Part shown: piece after piece, positions 17,388 to 25,866 of the stretch
Layout: every line of letters begins with the position of its first letter
Position numbering within the stretch: position 1 is the stretch's first letter
Origin: Breznakia sp. PF5-3
Lineage (GTDB): Bacteria > Bacillota_I > Bacilli_A > Erysipelotrichales > Erysipelotrichaceae
Assembly: GCF_029504745.1 (NCBI RefSeq)
Contig: NZ_JAQFIQ010000004.1
Coordinates: forward strand, 57,219 to 89,218
Length of the DNA stretch: 32,000 nucleotides
Reading direction: 5' to 3'
Program-made: the position numbers and the translations under genes
The notes under the pieces: model-generated
The model's input: only the letters and a program-made list of their open reading frames with translations
What the model was told of the DNA's origin: nothing
Databases searched by the model: none

Positions 17388-18578
17388 TTATTCTTCAGGT
17401 GTTGGCATAAGCTCGGTAGCTGATACCATTGCCACAATACAAGGTATTTCTCCAGGTGCAGCGTTGGTTTCAATATCATCTGGTATTTTGATTAAGACTA
17501 AGTATGAGGGATATACATAGTTATTGGTACTCCAATGACGACTATCATATAATTCAATACCCAATACATCTTTATAAGTTTCATCACTTAATGCATTTTG
17601 GATAATTGTCTGATAAGTCGTATCAGCGTTATCAAAATATGGAATCTGTATTGGACCACATGCGTAATCGTTTTTCAAGTTTTCTAGTGCTTGTTTAGTG
17701 CTGATCATTTTTTTGTCAGCTACTTTAGTTAAAGTGAAATTATTTGGCAATGATATACTAAGTTCCTTTCCGTTATCTCCCTCAAATAAATCATAGTCCA
17801 TTCGCTCAAATGATTTCATCATATCATTAACATCACTACGGGTTACATAGCCCTTTCCATTTGATTCTGGGGGAGTATCAAATGCACTTGTATAAGTATA
17901 TGGTTCATAGGGGTTACCAGTAAGCTCCTCCAAAATTTTAATTGCAAAATTATTAGCAGCTTCACTGTCTTCTATACCATATTCTTTTGGGTTTTTAAAC
18001 CAAATGGTTACATATATATGTGCATCGATAGAAAATGAAACACCATTAGGATAAGAATACGTAATGCTTGTTTTTACTCCCTGTTCAGTTGCATCATCTG
18101 TGATTGTTCTATCTTTAGAATCTAGATTTAGTATTTTTTCGATTGGTTCTGCATATTGTTTATCAAATTGTTCTTGTGAAACTATATCTGTGATACTTTG
18201 AATGATACGTCCATCTTGCGAATAGTCTAATCTAATATTTTCATAAACTGGTAAGGTGTCATACAATGCTATATCAGAGATTTCTAAATTGTTTGGATAT
18301 GCAGCATCCTTTTTTAAATAAATAAGTCCATCGTCTCCTTTGCGAGAATTAGATCCAGCATCCTTTGTTTGTGATATATCCTCTTTTTTAGGATTTGAAT
18401 TCATTTTTTGTAGTGTAAATACACTTATAATCATTAAACATACAACGATAGCTAGAGCCATAATAGGTTTCATGTTATTCTTTGTTACTTTTTCATTTGA
18501 TATTTCTTGAAGATGCTCTTTTAGTTTATTGTTTTCATTTATTTCATCTATATAGGTTTTATAATTTTTTTTGTTCAT
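17388..18578 (-). CDS. single-pass membrane protein with a large extracytoplasmic domain; putative anti-sigma factor
   Basis: 396 aa: ~35-aa cytoplasmic N-terminus, one TM (IMALAIVVCLMIISVFTL), ~335-aa external domain with no motif I recognise. ATGA overlap with the upstream ECF sigma gene. Confidence 0.5.
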   Translation of the reverse strand: MNKKNYKTYIDEINENNKLKEHLQEISNEKVTKNNMKPIMALAIVVCLMIISVFTLQKMNSNPKKEDISQTKDAGSNSRKGDDGLIYLKKDAAYPNNLEISDIALYDTLPVYENIRLDYSQDGRIIQSITDIVSQEQFDKQYAEPIEKILNLDSKDRTITDDATEQGVKTSITYSYPNGVSFSIDAHIYVTIWFKNPKEYGIEDSEAANNFAIKILEELTGNPYEPYTYTSAFDTPPESNGKGYVTRSDVNDMMKSFERMDYDLFEGDNGKELSISLPNNFTLTKVADKKMISTKQALENLKNDYACGPIQIPYFDNADTTYQTIIQNALSDETYKDVLGIELYDSRHWSTNNYVYPSYLVLIKIPDDIETNAAPGEIPCIVAMVSATELMPTPEE

Positions 18579-19036
18579 GATGATTCCTCCATTTGAGATT
18601 TAAGATATTTTAATGAGTTTTTTATATCACGAGAGACAGAACTAATGCTACGACCTGTCATATCTGATATTTCTTTATAGGTGTAACCTTCAATATAATA
18701 CAGATATACTATTGTGCGTTCTTCTTTTGAAAGTGCCATAAGTTCATCGTGTACTTGAATGCTTTCTTTGCTAATGATAAATTCATTAATATCAACATCG
18801 ACATGTTTCTTCTTGAAGAAACGGCGATGCAAGCTATTGCATTGATTTATAGTGACACGAACTAACCAATTTTTTAAGTGTTCTTCACTTTCAAAAGGCT
18901 TACTTTTATATAATTTGATATAGACTTCCTGTGCAATGTCTTGGGCATCATGAAAACTTGACGTGTTTGCCAAAGCAACATGAAAAACGAGATTGGAATA
19001 TTTATCTATATATTCTTCAAACTGTGAATGATCCAT
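18575..19036 (-). CDS. ECF-type (group 4) sigma-70 family RNA polymerase sigma factor
   Basis: 153 aa. Region 2 (DAQDIAQEVYIKLYK...WLVRVTINQC) and region 4 HTH (EERTIVYLYYIEGYTYKEISDMTGRSISSVSRDIKNSLKYLK). Confidence 0.88.
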   Translation of the reverse strand: MDHSQFEEYIDKYSNLVFHVALANTSSFHDAQDIAQEVYIKLYKSKPFESEEHLKNWLVRVTINQCNSLHRRFFKKKHVDVDINEFIISKESIQVHDELMALSKEERTIVYLYYIEGYTYKEISDMTGRSISSVSRDIKNSLKYLKSQMEESS

Positions 19037-19266: not shown

Positions 19267-20196
19267 ATGATAACGCAAAATACGGTTGATGAATTTATCA
19301 ATAAAATGAAAGAAGAAGGCTATGTTGTACGTGAAAATGTAGCTTTGAAAGATTATACGAGTTTAGAGATTGGAGGACCTGCAAGATTGCTTGCAGAACC
19401 TTATTGTAGTGATGAAATCAAATGTTTAGTAACGGAAGCAAAACGACTTAATATACCGTTTTATGTTTTAGGAAATGGTTCGAATGTGCTAGCTTCAGAC
19501 TTTGGGTTTCAAGGATTAATAATTGTTACGAAAACAAATTTTAATCAAATCATGATTGATGATGATACAAATATAATTGCGCAGTCTGGTGCTACTTTAA
19601 AAGATGTTTGTAGCTATGCATATGAACACAGTTTAAGTGGACTAGAGTTTGCCTGGGGAATTCCTGCTACGGTAGGTGGAGCAGCATATATGAATGCTGG
19701 CGCTTATGGTGGTGAGATGAAAGATGTAATGATTCATTGTAGTTATATGGATGGTGATGGAAACTTTCATATGCTGAATAGTGATGAATTGTTTTTTTCT
19801 TATCGCCATAGTTTTTTTAGCGATAAAAATGTTGTGATTTTAGAAGCAAAATTTGGTTTATGGAATGGTAATCAAACCAAAATAAAAGAACTGATGGATG
19901 ATTTGTTGGAGCGAAGAAAGGCAAAGCAACCGCTTGAGTATCCAAGCGCCGGAAGCACCTTTAAGCGTCCTGAGGGGAATTATGCATCAGCTCTAATTGA
20001 GCAATCGGGTATGAAAGGGTATAAACATAAAAATGCAATGGTAAGCGATAAGCATGCAGGATTTGTAATTAATCACAATCATGCTACAAGTAAAGAGTTT
20101 TTGGAGCTTATTGATATTGTGAAGAAAGAAGTAAAAGCAAAAACAGGTTATGAACTTGAATGTGAAGTGCGTATTATTGGAGAAGAAGCTGATTAG
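19267..20196 (+). CDS. murB: UDP-N-acetylenolpyruvoylglucosamine reductase
   Basis: 309 aa. FAD-binding domain (FYVLGNGSNVL) and the C-terminal MurB motif (PSAGSTFKRP). Confidence 0.95.
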   Translation: MITQNTVDEFINKMKEEGYVVRENVALKDYTSLEIGGPARLLAEPYCSDEIKCLVTEAKRLNIPFYVLGNGSNVLASDFGFQGLIIVTKTNFNQIMIDDDTNIIAQSGATLKDVCSYAYEHSLSGLEFAWGIPATVGGAAYMNAGAYGGEMKDVMIHCSYMDGDGNFHMLNSDELFFSYRHSFFSDKNVVILEAKFGLWNGNQTKIKELMDDLLERRKAKQPLEYPSAGSTFKRPEGNYASALIEQSGMKGYKHKNAMVSDKHAGFVINHNHATSKEFLELIDIVKKEVKAKTGYELECEVRIIGEEAD

Positions 20197-20206
20197 AAAT
20201 CAGCTT
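20186..20206. terminator. bidirectional hairpin shared by the convergent murB and PTS EIICB genes
   Basis: AAGCTGATT (20186-20194) / AATCAGCTT (20198-20206). The arms contain the last codons and stops of both genes. A T-rich run follows on the + strand. Confidence 0.55.
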
Positions 20207-21630
20207 TTATTTTGGGACTGCATTTCTTCAATAACGTCCATTATATAACTGGCATGCGGTCCATATACAACTTGGATTTCATTTCCTAATTTTAGATATT
20301 CCAGTGCCCCTGTTTTTTTTATTTCATCAAAAGAAAATTTATCAACGTCTAATAAACGAAAGCGAAGTCTTGTAATACAACAATCCATAAAAGTTATATT
20401 ATCTAAAGTACCACAATCACGAATTAAAATTGATGCGATTTGGAGCGCTTCTTCTTTTGTTAGATTGGTAGATAAAAATTGTGTATCTTCACTTACTTCA
20501 CGACCTAATGTATGCATATTAAATTTTTTAATAACATAAGTAAAGGTAAAGTAATATAAGAAGAAGATAAAAATACCTAACACTACCAACATAATAGGGG
20601 TTTTAGAAAATGGCATATTGAAACTTAAAATGAAGTCAATGAATCCTGCACTGAAACTAAATCCAGCAATCCATTGAAATTGTGCAGCAATGAATACACA
20701 AATTCCAGTTATTATTGCATGTAATAAATATAGTGGTGGAGCAATAAACATAAAAGCAAACTCGAGAGGCTCGGTTACACCTGTGAAAAAAGATGCAAAA
20801 GCAGCTGATAATAAGAATGATTTTATCTTTTCACGATTCTGTGGATAAGCTGTTTTCAACATGGCAAAGGCAACACCAGGAAGGCCAAACATCATGATGG
20901 GAAAAAATCCAGCTTGATACATTCCTGTAACACCCAAAGTTCCTGTAGAAGCCCAGAAGTTCCCAATGTCATTAATTCCAATGACATCAAACCAGAATAC
21001 AGAGTTTAGAGCATGATGCATTCCAATCGGAATTAATAAACGGTTAAAAAATGCATATATCCCAGCACCTAAAGGTCCTAACCCACTTACCAAAGCTCCA
21101 AATGAAATTAAACCTTCGTAAATGAAAGGCCATAAAAAGTATAAAATGATGGCAACAATAATTGTTATTAAAATAGTAATTAGTAGAATAACTAAATACT
21201 TGTTAACTTGTTGGAATGTTTTTTTATTGAAGCGATTGTATATCCCTGAAGCAATCACTCCTGATAGAATACCAATAAATTGATTATCAATTTTTTCAAA
21301 AGCGATGGGAATTGCCCCGCTAGTTTCACTTTGATAACTAGCAACACTATCACTTCCTAATAGGGAAGTAATAATTAAGAATGTTAATAACCCATTAAAC
21401 GCACTAAAACCACTTTGATCATCACTAAGGCCATAAGCCACACCTACAGCAAAGGTCATAGGCATAAAGCTCAATAGTGCATTTCCAGTAGTTTTTAAAA
21501 TGATTGCAAAGAAATAAATAGTAGAATTATCGATTTGTTCAAAGGAGTAACCTAATCCTGTGAGAATTGCAGCAATGGGAAAGATTGCAATGGGAAGTAA
21601 TAAGGATTTCCCAATTTTTTGTAAAGTCAT
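20200..21630 (-). CDS. PTS glucose/GlcNAc-family transporter subunit EIICB (intact)
   Basis: 476 aa. EIIC has the GITE-type motif (GVTEPLEFAFMF). The C-terminal EIIB has the phosphorylatable Cys motif (DCCITRLRF). No SD; the start follows the antiterminator stop as TAAtATG. Confidence 0.9.
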   Translation of the reverse strand: MTLQKIGKSLLLPIAIFPIAAILTGLGYSFEQIDNSTIYFFAIILKTTGNALLSFMPMTFAVGVAYGLSDDQSGFSAFNGLLTFLIITSLLGSDSVASYQSETSGAIPIAFEKIDNQFIGILSGVIASGIYNRFNKKTFQQVNKYLVILLITILITIIVAIILYFLWPFIYEGLISFGALVSGLGPLGAGIYAFFNRLLIPIGMHHALNSVFWFDVIGINDIGNFWASTGTLGVTGMYQAGFFPIMMFGLPGVAFAMLKTAYPQNREKIKSFLLSAAFASFFTGVTEPLEFAFMFIAPPLYLLHAIITGICVFIAAQFQWIAGFSFSAGFIDFILSFNMPFSKTPIMLVVLGIFIFFLYYFTFTYVIKKFNMHTLGREVSEDTQFLSTNLTKEEALQIASILIRDCGTLDNITFMDCCITRLRFRLLDVDKFSFDEIKKTGALEYLKLGNEIQVVYGPHASYIMDVIEEMQSQNKS

Positions 21631-21631
21631 A

Positions 21632-22456
21632 TTAGTTTATGATTTTATTGATATGAATCATCAGGTAAACTTTTTCATCCTGTGTGAGTTCATACTTATA
21701 GTTCATCTTAACAATTTCATAAATGTTTTCAATGCAACGCTCCATCAATGCATGATTACCCACAAGCAAGGTATATAGTTGATCCAAATCGATAGGTTCT
21801 TTTTTAGTATTTTGAAAAATATGCTGGGCTAGAAATTTCAGATGTGTTAACAACCGAGAATAATCAAGTTCATTTTCATCAAAAGATAAATGAAAGGTAT
21901 TTTCAATAATCGTTTGAATATCTTTAATAAATCGCAATATCTTGGTTGCATTTCCAGTGGTTGTCCCCATATTTGCATTCACAATATGCATAGCGATATA
22001 ACTTGCTTCATGCTCACCTAATTCAATTTTAGTATTTGCTTCAATTAATTTTAGTGACCACAAGCCCAGTTTAAATTCATCTTTATACAAAGTTCTAATT
22101 TCGGTAAGCATCAAATTTGGCATTTGCATATTTCGTTTTTTTCTTTCGACAGCATACCAAAGGTGATCGGTAAGTGAAATTAAAATTTGATTGCTTAAAG
22201 TAATATTTAATTCTTTGGTTGCTTTGCTAGCAATTGCTTCTGCAATTTGAAAGTATAGAACTGGTGTGCGATTCAATAATTGATTGATTTGAGTACGTTG
22301 TTTATCTTCAAATGTATACTTTTTATCAATCTTTTTTTCGTCAACAAAATCATTGGCTTTTTTTTGAAAACCAATTCCATTTCCGGTTAGGATAACTTCT
22401 TTATCACCATCTTTTGCGGCTATGATATTGTTATTATAAATACGGACAATTTTCAT
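21632..22456 (-). CDS. BglG/LicT/GlcT-family transcription antiterminator (CAT + PRD1 + PRD2)
   Basis: 274 aa. N-terminal CAT domain MKIVRIYNNNIIAA...GNGIGFQKK. Two PRD regions with conserved His contexts (LTDHL..., YIAMHI..., LLTHLKF...). Confidence 0.9.
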   Translation of the reverse strand: MKIVRIYNNNIIAAKDGDKEVILTGNGIGFQKKANDFVDEKKIDKKYTFEDKQRTQINQLLNRTPVLYFQIAEAIASKATKELNITLSNQILISLTDHLWYAVERKKRNMQMPNLMLTEIRTLYKDEFKLGLWSLKLIEANTKIELGEHEASYIAMHIVNANMGTTTGNATKILRFIKDIQTIIENTFHLSFDENELDYSRLLTHLKFLAQHIFQNTKKEPIDLDQLYTLLVGNHALMERCIENIYEIVKMNYKYELTQDEKVYLMIHINKIIN

Positions 22457-22467
22457 AAAGTTTCCTC

Positions 22468-23742
22468 CTAAAATACTAAAGATTGCATTTCTTCTTTTTG
22501 CAATTCTTCCAATGCTTTTGTTAGTTTATCACCATCTTTATCTATTTTTAAAATCAAAATATTCGCTTCTTTTTCATAAGGGATAGCAAAGCCCAAATCT
22601 TGAAATTTCTGCATATCTACAAAACTTATGGATATCACAAAAACTTCTATTCCCAAATTAGGAAGGTATTGAAAACGAATTATGTTTTCAATACCACCAA
22701 ATGCATGAAATAAGTTTTGAACAGTTTTATCATCATGTTTTTTTGTATTGATTACTCCTATATCAAAATGAATATTTAACTTTTGAAATAAGGTATAGAA
22801 AATCACCCCATATGCAATGCTTGCACCTATTCCGAGCAGTGGGATAGGAATACTACTATTATTATATACTATTATGAGCAAACCAGTTAAAAATATATGA
22901 ATACCATAAAGAATTGGACTACTCATAAAAATGATAATATCAAATAACATACCATTTCCACCTACTATACTATTTAAGAAAATCATTATAAATAAGGATA
23001 AATATAAATTTTTAAGTTGTTTGTTTGAATGAAGATAAACAATAATTAGTACTATTGGAGTTATATACATTGTAATGCTTGAAAGAAATGCTTGGCTTTC
23101 AATATCAAACATGGGAAGCAATGAAAATCCAATAGGGGTTAATAGTTTTTGAATACTGGCAATCCATCCATCACTAATGAAATGAAATTGTTTTATTCCA
23201 TTAATTAGGGTGATTAAACCTTCAACAATATATGGCCAAGTAAAAAAAAGAATACTTGATATGAAAATCATAATACAACCAGTTATAATAGGAACCAAAC
23301 GTTTTCCACTAAAGAATGCAAATCCTTGAGGAAGTTGAACACTTGAAAAATGATTATAAATCCAAGCACTTATAATTCCACACAAAATTCCAATAAATGG
23401 TGTTTGAATATAAACAAAGGTTGGATCTAATTGGTAGGTAGTACTTTCTAGTGCCTTTTGAAATGTATCGTTTGTTAGAATTTGAGTAACTACAATGTAG
23501 CTAATGATACCGCTTAAAATACTTGTTCCATCCATTTTTAAAGTTAGAAAAAAAGTAACACTTGCTGCAAGTAAGAGTGGCAAATGGTGAAAATATAAAG
23601 GTTCTAGATTTATTAGAAAATATAATCCAGAGAATTGAAAAGTCTCATAAAAAAAACTACCAATTAAACTTAATCCAGTAATTATCGGCAATATTAAAAG
23701 TGGCAACAGTAAACCGAGACAGTATCTTTTATAGGTATTCAC
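22468..23742 (-). CDS. degenerate PTS EIIC(B)-like membrane protein (predicted non-phosphorylatable, GITE motif lost)
   Basis: 424 aa, GTG start with an AGGGGG RBS. The EIIC-like N-terminus (LLLPLLILPIITGL) and polytopic body parallel the neighbouring EIICB. VGGNGMLFD replaces GVTEPLEF. The EIIB-like tail (FGGIENIIRFQYLPNLGIEV) has no cysteine. Confidence 0.7.
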   Translation of the reverse strand: MNTYKRYCLGLLLPLLILPIITGLSLIGSFFYETFQFSGLYFLINLEPLYFHHLPLLLAASVTFFLTLKMDGTSILSGIISYIVVTQILTNDTFQKALESTTYQLDPTFVYIQTPFIGILCGIISAWIYNHFSSVQLPQGFAFFSGKRLVPIITGCIMIFISSILFFTWPYIVEGLITLINGIKQFHFISDGWIASIQKLLTPIGFSLLPMFDIESQAFLSSITMYITPIVLIIVYLHSNKQLKNLYLSLFIMIFLNSIVGGNGMLFDIIIFMSSPILYGIHIFLTGLLIIVYNNSSIPIPLLGIGASIAYGVIFYTLFQKLNIHFDIGVINTKKHDDKTVQNLFHAFGGIENIIRFQYLPNLGIEVFVISISFVDMQKFQDLGFAIPYEKEANILILKIDKDGDKLTKALEELQKEEMQSLVF

Positions 23743-23782
23743 CTGCAGTACCCCCTATTTATTTTTCCCCTTAATCGCCTTC

Positions 23783-23811
23783 ATTATATGAAGTACAAAG
23801 GGGTTTGTCAA
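23783..23811 (-). promoter_or_regulatory. consensus sigma-A promoter of the EIIC'-antiterminator-EIICB operon
   Basis: The minus strand reads TTGACA (rc 23806-23811), 17 nt, TATAAT (rc 23783-23788). The leader to the GTG is only about 40 nt and has no hairpin. Confidence 0.75.
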
Positions 23812-23831
23812 TTTTTTATTTATGTGATTAT

Positions 23832-23860
23832 TTGACAAATTCGAATATTTACAGTAGCAT
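23832..23860 (+). promoter_or_regulatory. candidate promoter of the EIIA gene (divergent, back-to-back -35 boxes)
   Basis: TTGACA (23832-23837), 17 nt, TAGCAT (23855-23860). RBS AAGGGGG precedes the ATG at 23890. Confidence 0.5.
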
Positions 23861-23889
23861 ACTGATTGAAGAAAACAAGGGGGTAAAAA

Positions 23890-24369
23890 ATGTTTCAACG
23901 ATTTTCTAAGCGGAAAAAACATTTGGATATTTTTGCTCCAGTAGACGGTCAGACAATGAGTCTTGATCAAGTAGATGACCCTGTATTTTCTGGAAGAATT
24001 ATGGGTGAAGGAATTGCGATTAACACGCATTGTGGTAAAGTATATGCGCCAGCAGATGGAACAATTGCAGTATTGGCCAAAACCAAACATGCAGTTGCCA
24101 TGAAATTGAATAATGGAATTGAATTGTTAATTCATGTTGGCATCCATACAGATACATTAACAGGCAATGAATGTTTATCCCACGTAGAAACTGGACAAAG
24201 AGTAAAAAAAGGAGAATTACTTCTAACGTTTGATTCAAAGAAGATGTGTAAAGAAACCGATATTGTTGTTCCAATTATTGTGTTGAATAGTTCACAACAT
24301 CCAATTTGTCACTTGAAAATAGGGACAAAAGCGGTTGTGAATGAAACGGTATTGTTTGAAGTGCAATAA
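23890..24369 (+). CDS. PTS glucose-family EIIA component
   Basis: 159 aa. EIIA-Glc fold motifs: DPVFSGRIMGEGIAI, and the active-site His region GIELLIHVGIHTDTL. Confidence 0.92.
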   Translation: MFQRFSKRKKHLDIFAPVDGQTMSLDQVDDPVFSGRIMGEGIAINTHCGKVYAPADGTIAVLAKTKHAVAMKLNNGIELLIHVGIHTDTLTGNECLSHVETGQRVKKGELLLTFDSKKMCKETDIVVPIIVLNSSQHPICHLKIGTKAVVNETVLFEVQ

Positions 24370-24376
24370 CTGGATA

Positions 24377-24404
24377 TTGACAACAACAAATATCGTGTTA
24401 AAAT
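24377..24404 (+). promoter_or_regulatory. promoter preceding the RAT element
   Basis: TTGACA (24377-24382), 16 nt, TGtTAAAAT (extended -10, 24396-24404). Confidence 0.6.
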
Positions 24405-24432
24405 GAAATTGACAGGTAGAATAGATAAGGTT

Positions 24433-24459
24433 GGATTGTAACTAGTAATAGGCAAGACT
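24433..24459 (+). promoter_or_regulatory. RAT (ribonucleic antiterminator) target of a BglG/LicT-family protein
   Basis: GGATTGTAACTAGTAATAGGCAAGACT compared with B. subtilis RATs (e.g. GGAUUGUGACUGGUAAAGCAGGCAAGACC). It folds as GG/UUG...CAA/CU with a CUA-GUAA-UAG apical stem and GNRA loop. Its 3' part overlaps the 5' arm of the terminator. Confidence 0.8.
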
Positions 24460-24505
24460 AACGAAATCACAGTGATGTGTTTTTGTTAATCTTGCCTTTT
24501 TGTTT
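24450..24505 (+). terminator. RAT-overlapping intrinsic terminator
   Basis: AGGCAAGACTAAC (24450-24462) pairs with GTTAATCTTGCCT (24485-24497): 13 bp with one C.A mismatch, followed by TTTTTGTTT. Confidence 0.8.
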
Positions 24506-24916
24506 CTTCCGCGATTGTCTATTGTAGTACTTGTTTCTCTTACACATCATCTGTGAGAAAACGATCCAAATGTTTTTGATACCGCAATATTAAAAACCAC
24601 ATAGGTGTGTGTGATATGATAATGATTTTTTATGCTCATATAAATGACAGGCATGAGCAATAAAAATTTAGTCATGGGGATGGAAACGCATTCATAAGTA
24701 AACACTAATAATCCAACAGGTTTCATTTCAAACTTCTTAGCAGGTTGATTATTGGGTTATGATAGGTTCCCCATATAAAATTTCGATGTTTTCAAAAACA
24801 ACTGAATTTTGGAAACTATCATAAATTGGTTTTATATTATGAATGGAGAAACAAGTACTAGGGTAGATAATCTGGTTCCCAAGAAGGAAAGGGATTTTAA
24901 CACACCAAATATGTAA

Positions 24917-24950
24917 TAACAGTGGATTTACACATAGGAATCCACTGTTA
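24917..24950. repeat. perfect 12-bp inverted repeat TAACAGTGGATT-N10-AATCCACTGTTA
   Basis: Seen directly in the sequence. No adjacent U-run on either strand. About 50 bp upstream of the TGaTATAAT box (about 25003-25011) of the next gene. Confidence 0.7.
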
Positions 24951-25035
24951 TACATATATTGTGAAAAAGGGATTTGGATAATTTTTTTTCTTTATTAAAT
25001 CTATGATATAATAGCTAGGCAATAAAGGGGAAAAG

Positions 25036-25866
25036 ATGAAAAAGCAATTAGAAAATAGTATTATCAAAACCTATCGAAAAGATATTTGGTCAAAATTTAT
25101 GAAGGCTTTACGAGAGTATGCATTAATTCAAAGCGATGATGTCATAGCCGTTTGTATCTCAGGAGGAAAAGATAGCATGTTGATGGCAAAATGTTTTGCT
25201 ATTCTCTCACGCTTTACAGAGGTTCCATTCACAGTAAAATATATTGTAATGGATCCAGGGTATAAGCAAGAAAATCTAGAGAAGATTAAAAGCAATGCCA
25301 AAAAGTTAGAAATTCCGATTGAAATATTTTCAACTCAAATTTTTGAAACAGTAGAAAAAATTGATAAAAACCCATGCTATTTATGTGCACGGATGCGTAG
25401 AGGGTATCTCTATAATTATGCACAAAAGCTCGGTTGTAATAAAATTGCACTTGGTCATCATTATGATGATGTAATCGAAACAAACTTGATGAATATTTTC
25501 TATGCTGGTGAAATTCGTACCATGATGCCAAAGCTTCATTCACAAAATTTTAAAGGTATGGAATTGATTCGTCCTTTATATTTAGTGAAGGAAGATGCTA
25601 TTATTCGTTGGAAAGAGTGGAATGATTTAGATTTCTTAGAATGTGCATGTCGGTTTACGGAAGAAAATGATAGTAATTTAAAAGAACAGACGAGTAAACG
25701 AAAAGAAATAAAAGACTTAATCAAAAAATATAAGGAAATAAACCCTTATTTAGATAGTAATATTTTTCATTCTATGGCGAATGTAAATATTAGTAAAGTT
25801 CTTTCTTATTATGATGAGGAAAAAGAAGTAAACTTTCTAGATACATATGATTCTAAAGAAAGTTAA
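25036..25866 (+). CDS. PP-loop ATPase, TtcA-like tRNA thiolation enzyme
   Basis: 276 aa. PP-loop SGGKDS, a CxxC context (PCYLCARMRRG), GHHYDD, and later Cys residues (ECACRF). Confidence 0.75.
   Translation: MKKQLENSIIKTYRKDIWSKFMKALREYALIQSDDVIAVCISGGKDSMLMAKCFAILSRFTEVPFTVKYIVMDPGYKQENLEKIKSNAKKLEIPIEIFSTQIFETVEKIDKNPCYLCARMRRGYLYNYAQKLGCNKIALGHHYDDVIETNLMNIFYAGEIRTMMPKLHSQNFKGMELIRPLYLVKEDAIIRWKEWNDLDFLECACRFTEENDSNLKEQTSKRKEIKDLIKKYKEINPYLDSNIFHSMANVNISKVLSYYDEEKEVNFLDTYDSKES

Follow-up and report, generated by a model that had tools for sequence, protein, structure and literature searches.

The window analysed here, a 32,000-nt stretch of the genome of Breznakia sp. PF5-3, carries a complete antitermination switch, consisting of a promoter, a ribonucleic antiterminator (RAT) hairpin and an overlapping intrinsic terminator, behind the gene for a phosphotransferase system (PTS) enzyme IIA (EIIA). 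RAT/PRD antiterminators are textbook regulators of sugar-catabolic operons and, to our knowledge, their outputs are protein-coding genes. What the switch in the window controls is probably a structured non-coding RNA that stands alone and forms part of an N-acetylglucosamine (GlcNAc)-type PTS/antiterminator module of Breznakia-like gut bacteria. The DNA downstream of the RAT, which is free of open reading frames (ORFs), is predicted to encode this RNA on the plus strand at 24513-24872. Judged from the sequence, the element is a canonical switch with a new type of cargo, and the cargo is itself a previously undescribed RNA family. The original prediction, an earlier note on the same DNA, had given the switch nothing obvious to regulate. 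This was wrong, since a conserved structured RNA lies downstream; the inverted repeat and the RNA that it encloses had gone unnoticed. Among the alternatives listed in that note, a non-coding RNA is the one favoured, as a covarying structured RNA is kept in five lineages.

The promoter, RAT and terminator

Five Erysipelotrichaceae lineages were compared: the window, L003, L004/L005 (Breznakia pachnodae), L009/L010 and L006/L007 (Erysipelotrichaceae bacterium MTC7). The antiterminators encoded beside the switch in the four relatives are 85%, 76-77%, 73% and 69% identical to that of the window, respectively, B. pachnodae being the closest named relative and MTC7 the next.

The promoter TTGACA-16-TGtTAAAAT, proposed earlier, was found again behind the EIIA gene. 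It matches at 11 of 12 positions, with the extended -10 TG at 24396-24397 and TAAAAT at 24399-24404. The AT-rich region shows no enrichment of promoter-like sites (17 observed vs. 13.4 expected) and a single match there is not significant; the promoter is credible because it is conserved in relatives. Both TTGACA and TGnTAAAAT are kept in L003, L004, L005 and L009, and in MTC7 the sequence TTGACT-17-TATCAT stands in the same place. Transcription is expected to start near 24411. The -35 box follows the EIIA stop codon after only 7 nt, so that EIIA transcripts must also end at, or read through, the RAT terminator.

The RAT at 24433-24459 conforms to a GGAUUGUUACUG...CAGGCAAAACC-type consensus with two internal loops and is the sole RAT found in the window by a RAT pattern search. 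The fold, weak on its own at -7.1 kcal/mol, has a lower stem, two internal loops and the apical CUA-GUAA-UAG described previously, and an alignment of 10 related RATs bears this structure out: 96% of the cells are paired, compared with 18-54% in slid controls, and the apical stem covaries. The extended consensus of the 10 RATs from the related loci is GAUAAGGUUrGAUUGUwAC...rGCAArACyNrCGnAAUy. The terminator is much stronger (-24.5 kcal/mol, z = -6.2), and 5 of its 15 consensus pairs show compensatory change among the same RATs. It shares 13 nt (24450-24462) of its 5' arm with the 3' half of the RAT and, because of this overlap, the two structures are mutually exclusive. The shared arm had thus been recognized correctly, although the stem is about 20 bp (8+8+4) rather than the 13 bp originally assigned. 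With a RAT, an overlapping terminator, a nearby CAT-PRD antiterminator and PTS enzymes II (EII) all present, the LicT/SacY-type arrangement that had been proposed holds.

What follows the terminator is not a gene. As stated earlier, there is no plus-strand ORF of at least 60 aa in 24506-25035, the longest being 35 aa. The RAT does not stand in the leader of a sugar gene, and no protein-coding gene lies directly behind it in the window.

A structured RNA downstream of the terminator

The predicted RNA is closed by the two arms of an inverted repeat, P1, and contains two hairpins, P2 and P3 (Table 1). The P1 arms were independently reported by a repeat finder as a 27-nt inverted repeat (24513-24539 / 24846-24872). 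A four-way alignment of the gap revealed conserved islands within an otherwise divergent, indel-rich interval. These are, in order, the promoter, the RAT, the terminator, CUAUUGUAGUACUUGUUUCUC (24519-24539), GCCGCAA and GAGAAACAAGUACUAGGGUAGAUAA (24846-24870), of which CUAUUGUAGUACUUGUUUCUC and GAGAAACAAGUACUAGGGUAGAUAA are reverse complements of one another. The 15-nt core of P1 occurs exactly twice in the window, where 0.08 copies are expected by chance, and twice in each related locus. The core is identical in four lineages, whereas EIIA and the TtcA-like protein are 45% and 76% identical, respectively, between the window and B. pachnodae. Such extreme conservation suggests that the sequence of the duplex is itself recognized, or that the P1 strands also have another partner to pair with.

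Folding of the region gave z-scores relative to shuffled sequences of -6.6 for the window, -4.8 for L003 and -6.95 for L005, and the closing helix of each fold consists of the two P1 arms. The P1 duplex is 22-27 bp long across the lineages. Compared with the window, P1 of L009 has an A-U pair replaced by G-C and a G-G mismatch replaced by U-A, while in MTC7 several outer pairs are altered on both strands. The P2 stem varies by lineage (GAUA/UAUU, GAUG/CAUC, AUUG/CAAU). The loop motif of P3, AAUGACAGGC, was found in all five lineages, in L003 as AAAGACAGGC, on stems that are unrelated in sequence. P2 is absent from a short form of the RNA in MTC7; all other parts recur in the five lineages.

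The covariation was quantified on a core alignment that was built manually from the invariant loops and the P1 core outwards, with the register fixed by the invariant sequence; MAFFT did not align the short MTC7 form. Standard pairs occupy 92.8% of the 209 cells, compared with 37-52% in slid controls. Compensatory changes were seen in 21 of the 44 pairs, 7 in P1, 9 in P2 and 5 in P3, which amounts to 9 of the 10 pairs of P2 (four lineages) and 5 of the 7 pairs of P3. None of 500 shuffles attained the observed values of pairing and compensation. Furthermore, the non-Watson-Crick cells, read in the plus sense, comprise 13 G.U but only 3 A.C. This bias indicates an RNA read from the plus strand, the strand of the promoter and the RAT, and argues against a DNA-level repeat or a minus-strand RNA.

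The interior enclosed by P1 ranges from about 52 nt in MTC7 (about 52-70 nt) to its full length in the window. The interior of the window is about 100-250 nt longer than that of the relatives, and the additional sequence (24598-24632 and 24690-24845) forms local inverted repeats, I2-I4. On the 3' side of P1, a hairpin followed by a U-rich tract is present in L005, L009 and L006, three of the four other lineages, and the hairpin at the corresponding place in the window may mark the 3' end of the RNA.

The sequence AUUGACAGGUA (24408-24418), where the RAT transcript is predicted to begin, resembles the P3 loop motif AAUGACAGGCA. The likeness is confined to the window, is absent from the relatives and is probably a coincidence.

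Association of the RNA with the PTS module

The ORF-free interval downstream of the RAT is kept in all five lineages. L003, L004/L005 and L009/L010 retain the order EIIA, a gap of 430-660 bp, the ttcA-like gene and nagB. The earlier suggestion to look in relatives for a gene between the RAT and the ttcA-like gene found none; the ORF-free interval is kept instead. No small ORF or Shine-Dalgarno site is common to the interval in the four relatives, and the local ORFs of 59, 68, 35 and 111 aa had no match in Pfam.

The arrangement in MTC7 is different. There the promoter-RAT-terminator unit and the antiterminator operon diverge without an EIIA gene between them. The short form of the RNA, a 22-bp P1 and the P3 hairpin, stands behind the same RAT and is followed by an 11-bp hairpin with a U-rich tail and then by a convergent gene; there is no plus-strand gene to regulate. 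The housekeeping backbone of MTC7 with ttcA and nagB (L019) reads murB, ttcA, PadR, HAAS, nagB, HAD, thioredoxin, LytR and Tim44, with murB and ttcA 10 nt apart. No RAT, P1 arm or P3 motif was found in L019, nor in the Bax1-ttcA-nagB stretch of L020. When 19267-25035 of the window was compared with 2370-4107 of L019, a block of about 4.8 kb comprising the PTS, antiterminator and EIIA genes and the RAT-RNA lay between murB and ttcA, and this block looks like an insertion between the two genes in the Breznakia clade. The MTC7 arrangement, together with the backbones that are free of RAT and RNA, indicates that the RNA belongs to the PTS/antiterminator module rather than to ttcA and nagB, and that it is not a decayed gene. 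The murB-ttcA gap of B. pachnodae holds additional acetyltransferase, SDF transporter and peptidase genes.

These arrangements bear directly on an explanation that the original prediction had also listed, a long 5' untranslated region (UTR) leading into ttcA and nagB. Antitermination would then run through P1-P3 into the ttcA-like, nagB and HAD phosphatase genes and couple amino-sugar uptake to the expression of glucosamine-6-phosphate deaminase, with the fold acting as a processing or stability element. In favour of this, the RNA is on the strand of the ttcA-like gene, with its end about 160 nt before that gene, nagB has a functional connection to a GlcNAc PTS, and the gene order is retained in four lineages. 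The hairpin of the window without an adjacent U-tract and the lack of a terminator in L003 would also fit. However, the RNA moves with the module. In MTC7 a terminator and then a convergent gene come after it, and the backbones of the ttcA and nagB genes there and in L020 carry neither RAT nor RNA. Moreover, the ttcA-like gene has its own extended -10, TGaTATAAT, as had been noted and as is conserved in the relatives, and a hairpin with a U-tract follows P1 in L005, L009 and L006. A cis-acting leader is therefore unlikely as the main role of the RNA.

The possibility was also considered that the RAT itself is the functional part, either by titrating the antiterminator as a decoy or by giving the EIIA mRNA a conditional 3' end, the RNA being a stabilizing appendage without a function in trans. 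Paralogous modules, with an antiterminator that is 63% identical, have a RAT-terminator right after the EIIA stop codon (L011 6025-6118, L012 1457-1483 and L014 155-242, all on the minus strand). They have no promoter and no cargo, and a second terminator and a convergent gene follow 25-80 nt further on; this cargo-less RAT is kept between MTC7 and Breznakia spp. In the window, too, EIIA transcripts must enter the RAT and terminator. However, P1, P2 and P3 lie beyond the terminator, and their synthesis would require antitermination; no other part of the interval is as well conserved or covaries as strongly, and a dedicated conserved promoter feeds the RAT. An explanation by the RAT alone is accordingly doubtful, and somewhat more so than the leader.

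That the inverted repeat is a DNA-level element, formed by the ends of a miniature inverted-repeat transposable element or insertion sequence remnant or by an invertible promoter segment, is very improbable: a 27-nt inverted repeat around an interior varying from 52 to 306 nt would suit such an element, but it is single-copy in the window and in about 250 kb of related loci and was not found in the viral or metagenome scans, no transposase or recombinase is among the window ORFs scanned, its orientation relative to the RAT is identical in 9 of 9 assemblies, the mismatches of its arms are mostly G.U in the plus sense, the hairpins of its interior covary, and its arms are far better conserved than its interior. 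A decayed protein-coding cargo gene, proposed earlier to account for 530 bp without a gene behind a complete switch, is contradicted by five lineages that keep an ORF-free interval with the same RNA elements, no small ORF in common, no Pfam match for the longest ORFs and conservation in paired RNA elements rather than in a reading frame, and is the least credible of the alternatives.

Several points nevertheless count against a stand-alone RNA gated by the switch. The comparison comprises only five lineages, and the hand-built core alignment leans towards structure. The hairpin of the window has no U-tract directly after it, and L003 has no recognizable terminator on the 3' side of P1; the 3' end in the window is uncertain, and read-through into ttcA and nagB is possible in the window and in L003. 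The transcription start, the 3' end of the RNA, its inducibility and the binding of the antiterminator are all read from sequence. Since the paralogous modules have a RAT after EIIA without cargo, a RAT at this position may have a role for which no downstream RNA is needed. In addition, complementarity searches near the module gave no conserved target or partner of the P3 loop or the P1 arms, and RNA immunoprecipitation sequencing (RIP-seq) of NagY, a BglG/SacY-family antiterminator of Enterococcus faecalis, recovered no small RNA (sRNA) (PMC12502629).

Components of the module and the probable sugar

The antiterminator operon consists of genes for an EIIC-like membrane protein, the antiterminator and a complete EIIBC, in that order, and the EIIA gene is divergent from it (Table 1). 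The antiterminator has Pfam domains PF03123 (CAT_RBD) and PF00874 (PRD) and has LicT as its best NCBIfam model, with 264 bits, below the 300-bit cut-off. It accompanies the same RAT consensus in every relative that has a recognizable RAT. The EIIBC matches NCBIfam TIGR01998 (PTS-II-BC-nag) with E = 8e-146, below the curated cut-off, and contains the Pfam domains PTS_EIIC and PTS_EIIB. Residues 12-227 of the EIIC-like protein are all that is covered by Pfam PTS_EIIC. Counterparts of 418-425 aa stand at the same position in every relative (L003-L018), beside a complete NagE-like EIIBC, and the protein may be a SacX-like sensor or an accessory permease.

The leader of this operon is 40 nt long (start codon 23742) and has no RAT. 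The operon does not appear to be autoregulated by antitermination, unlike nagY-nagE, sacPA and bglPH.

EIIA is the fast-evolving part of the module: the identity given above was obtained with 6092-6571 of L005, compared with 76-77% for the antiterminator and 76% for the TtcA-like protein. A search for EIIA homologues at a strict E-value threshold returned only the query because EIIA diverges fast and the threshold was too strict.

RATs of the same consensus are found between the PTS operon and giant hexosaminidase genes, of glycoside hydrolase family 84 (GH84) in L006 of MTC7 and in L011, its paralogous locus, and of family 20 (GH20) in L015, a 60%-identical relative. Together with the NagE-like EIIBC, these RATs before GH84 and GH20 genes indicate an amino-sugar system of the GlcNAc type. 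No such gene for a secreted glycan-degrading enzyme was found among the window ORFs scanned. L017/L018 (1-5514, 6710-10248) hold a 58%-identical antiterminator module beside a giant Lyase_8 (hyaluronate-lyase-type) surface protein, a neighbour that recalls hylA in the NagY regulon of E. faecalis. The RAT pattern found no RAT in L017/L018, where it may have diverged.

Table 1. Coordinates of the switch, the predicted RNA and the associated genes in the window
Feature	Position	Strand	Description
PTS EIIBC, N-acetylglucosamine-type (NagE-like)	20200-21630	-	last gene of antiterminator operon; presumed sensor partner
BglG/SacY/LicT-family antiterminator	21632-22456	-	CAT RNA-binding domain and PRDs; presumed RAT-binding protein
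EIIC-like membrane protein without EIIB	22468-23742	-	424 aa; first gene of antiterminator operon
Promoter of EIIC-like/antiterminator/EIIBC operon	23783-23811	-	TTGACA-17-TATAAT, 12/12
PTS EIIA, glucose family	23890-24369	+	TIGR00830 PTBA, 125.9 bits, above cut-off
Promoter of RAT-gated RNA, sigma-70-type	24377-24404	+	TTGACA (24377-24382), 16-nt spacer, TGtTAAAAT
RAT hairpin	24430-24462	+	GUUGGAUUGUAACUAGUAAUAGGCAAGACUAAC; core GGAUUGUAACUAGUAAUAGGCAAGACU at 24433-24459
Intrinsic terminator	24450-24509	+	stem 24450-24497, then U-tract
P1 5' arm	24513-24539	+	GAUUGUCUAUUGUAGUACUUGUUUCUC; inverted repeat
P2 hairpin	24572-24597	+	10-bp stem, invariant loop CCGCAA (24582-24587), z = -4.5
P3 hairpin	24633-24659	+	loop 24640-24652 carries AAUGACAGGC; fold computed
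P1 3' arm	24846-24872	+	GAGAAACAAGUACUAGGGUAGAUAAUC; pairs with 24513-24539, closes 306-nt interior
Hairpin downstream of P1	24916-24951	+	13 bp; possible RNA 3' end
Extended -10 of ttcA-like gene, TGaTATAAT	25004-25012	+	conserved in four-way alignment; module boundary, outside switch

Proposed mechanism

Transcription would start at the RAT promoter, would also arrive from the EIIA gene, and would stop by default at the strong terminator. The LicT/NagY-like antiterminator, which by analogy with its family is predicted to bind the RAT of the window, would stabilize this weak hairpin and so block the terminator. On the model of LicT, SacY, GlcT and NagY, this protein would be active while EIIBC and EIIA transport the cognate amino sugar and HPr permits; the inducer is predicted to be an amino sugar, probably GlcNAc. 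Read-through would yield an RNA of about 450-550 nt, with a body closed by P1 that displays the P2 and P3 loops.

A more speculative step concerns the fate of this transcript. P1 abuts the U-tract of the terminator, and its 22-27 bp are of a length that RNase III cuts. By analogy, RNase III probably processes the RNA at P1, which would free a stable P2/P3 core from the RAT leader; an involvement of RNase III is on record for NagY (PMC12502629). A partner in trans, either an mRNA or a protein, would likely be contacted through the invariant loops CCGCAA and AAUGACAGGC, and the RNA would then be a regulatory output of the amino-sugar PTS. Taken as a whole, the proposal that the P1-P2-P3 RNA defines a novel class of RNA, acting in trans as a riboregulator or as a protein sponge, that it is the principal output of the PTS antiterminator and that its core is released by RNase III at P1 is a tentative one.

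Relation to known systems

The RAT-terminator antitermination switches of Bacillus subtilis were reportedly described by Aymerich and Steinmetz in 1992. As in the LicT, SacY, SacT and GlcT systems (PMC3105407, PMC5393181), the RAT in the window is a weak hairpin of about 29 nt that has the GGAUUGU...GGCAAGAC signature and is interrupted by two internal loops, a strong intrinsic terminator shares part of its 5' arm with the 3' half of this hairpin, and a CAT-PRD-PRD antiterminator and PTS EII are encoded alongside. In contrast to these systems, the cargo here is predicted to be an ORF-free structured RNA rather than a catabolic gene or operon, the antiterminator operon has no RAT and the RAT has a family-specific extended consensus.

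The closest characterized analogue is NagY-NagE of E. faecalis, in which a BglG/SacY-family antiterminator is likewise linked to a GlcNAc-type PTS. RATs recognized by NagY control nagY-nagE and hylA (PMC9981650). Extra RATs stand before genes for secreted glycan-degrading enzymes, hylA there and, in the relatives of the window, the GH84 and GH20 genes. NagY cooperates with RNase III (PMC12502629), and the 27-bp duplex of the window is of a size that RNase III cuts. However, NagY controls its own expression by a RAT in its 5' UTR, which has no counterpart here, and no sRNA target was found for NagY by RIP-seq, whereas the sole RAT of the window is predicted to drive a non-coding RNA. The gene order also differs, with the EIIC-like, antiterminator and EIIBC genes in succession and a separate divergent EIIA gene.

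In concept, EutX/Rli55 comes nearest. This non-coding RNA, gated by a B12 riboswitch, is said to sequester the ANTAR antiterminator EutV, as DebRoy et al. in 2014 and Mellin et al. in 2014 (Science) reportedly found. In both cases a conditional terminator decides the full synthesis of a stand-alone non-coding RNA on which an antiterminator protein has a binding site, a predicted one in the present case. The gate differs, being a protein-bound RAT of the PRD family and not a metabolite riboswitch, and the body of the RNA, P1, P2 and P3, is unrelated. By analogy with EutX/Rli55, a sequestering role for the RNA is a possibility.

GlmY/GlmZ form the amino-sugar sRNA cascade of Enterobacteria (PMC2377431, PMC6602413) and offer a possible analogy only, as RNA regulators connected with amino-sugar metabolism that must be processed for their activity. 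They resemble the RNA of the window in neither sequence nor structure, and the phylum, the sensing input (a PTS antiterminator here) and the nuclease are different; amino-sugar control by the RNA of the window is hypothetical.

RAT leaders are known to give short terminated transcripts (PMC2965222), but a literature search turned up no case of a BglG/SacY-family RAT that gates a structured RNA standing on its own. If the present interpretation is correct, the RNA would be the first stand-alone non-coding RNA under such control, in a cascade from the PTS through a PRD antiterminator to a non-coding RNA, and a new RNA family with a testable inducer, probably GlcNAc. The availability of GlcNAc could thereby lead Breznakia-like Erysipelotrichaceae to re-programme genes for amino sugars, the cell wall or glycan foraging. 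Should the RNA act in trans, an RNA-based regulatory layer would receive input from sugar sensing by the PTS and would be, in spirit, the Gram-positive equivalent of riboswitch-gated EutX/Rli55 or of GlmY/GlmZ. The distribution is narrow so far, five lineages of one Erysipelotrichaceae clade. B. pachnodae, which carries the element, is a described species with a public genome assembly, so the prediction is directly testable.

Database searches and neighbouring features

Rfam 15 gave no match in the window at the gathering threshold, and at E <= 10 the region 24300-25100 gave only chance matches, mostly to eukaryotic microRNA and small nucleolar RNA models. A contig search with the antiterminator returned only a 34%-identical LicT-like locus of Mammaliicoccus. 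The RAT consensus had no match in a scan of JGI metagenomes and the right arm of P1 had none in a viral scan; four metagenome matches to the right arm were single arms without RAT, loop motif or partner arm and were attributed to chance.

Other identities for parts of the element were tried and rejected. Targets for the P3 loop and the P1 arms were sought in the window, the related loci and the 5' UTRs of the module genes, with lineage-specific coincidences as the only result; among these are GGGUACUGC at the ribosome-binding site of the EIIC-like gene of the window and GUGUACUUGUU inside the promoter spacer of MTC7. P3 is not a second RAT, as it has only AGGCA in common with one and the UUGU...ACU half is absent, and the conserved ATGACA of P3 is not followed by a conserved -10 that would make it a -35 box. 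A retron msr-msd, a 6S RNA and a riboswitch were rejected because a reverse transcriptase gene, a match in Rfam and, in MTC7, a gene downstream are all lacking.

Two features of the surrounding minus strand were also recorded. An ORF of 111 aa (23755-24090) overlaps the divergent promoter region and the start of EIIA; it has no NCBIfam or Pfam match and is most likely spurious. A gene for a sigma factor with sigma-70 r2/r4 domains, of the extracytoplasmic function type (18575-19036), overlaps by 4 nt the gene at 17388-18578, whose 396-aa product has no family match and is possibly an anti-sigma factor.

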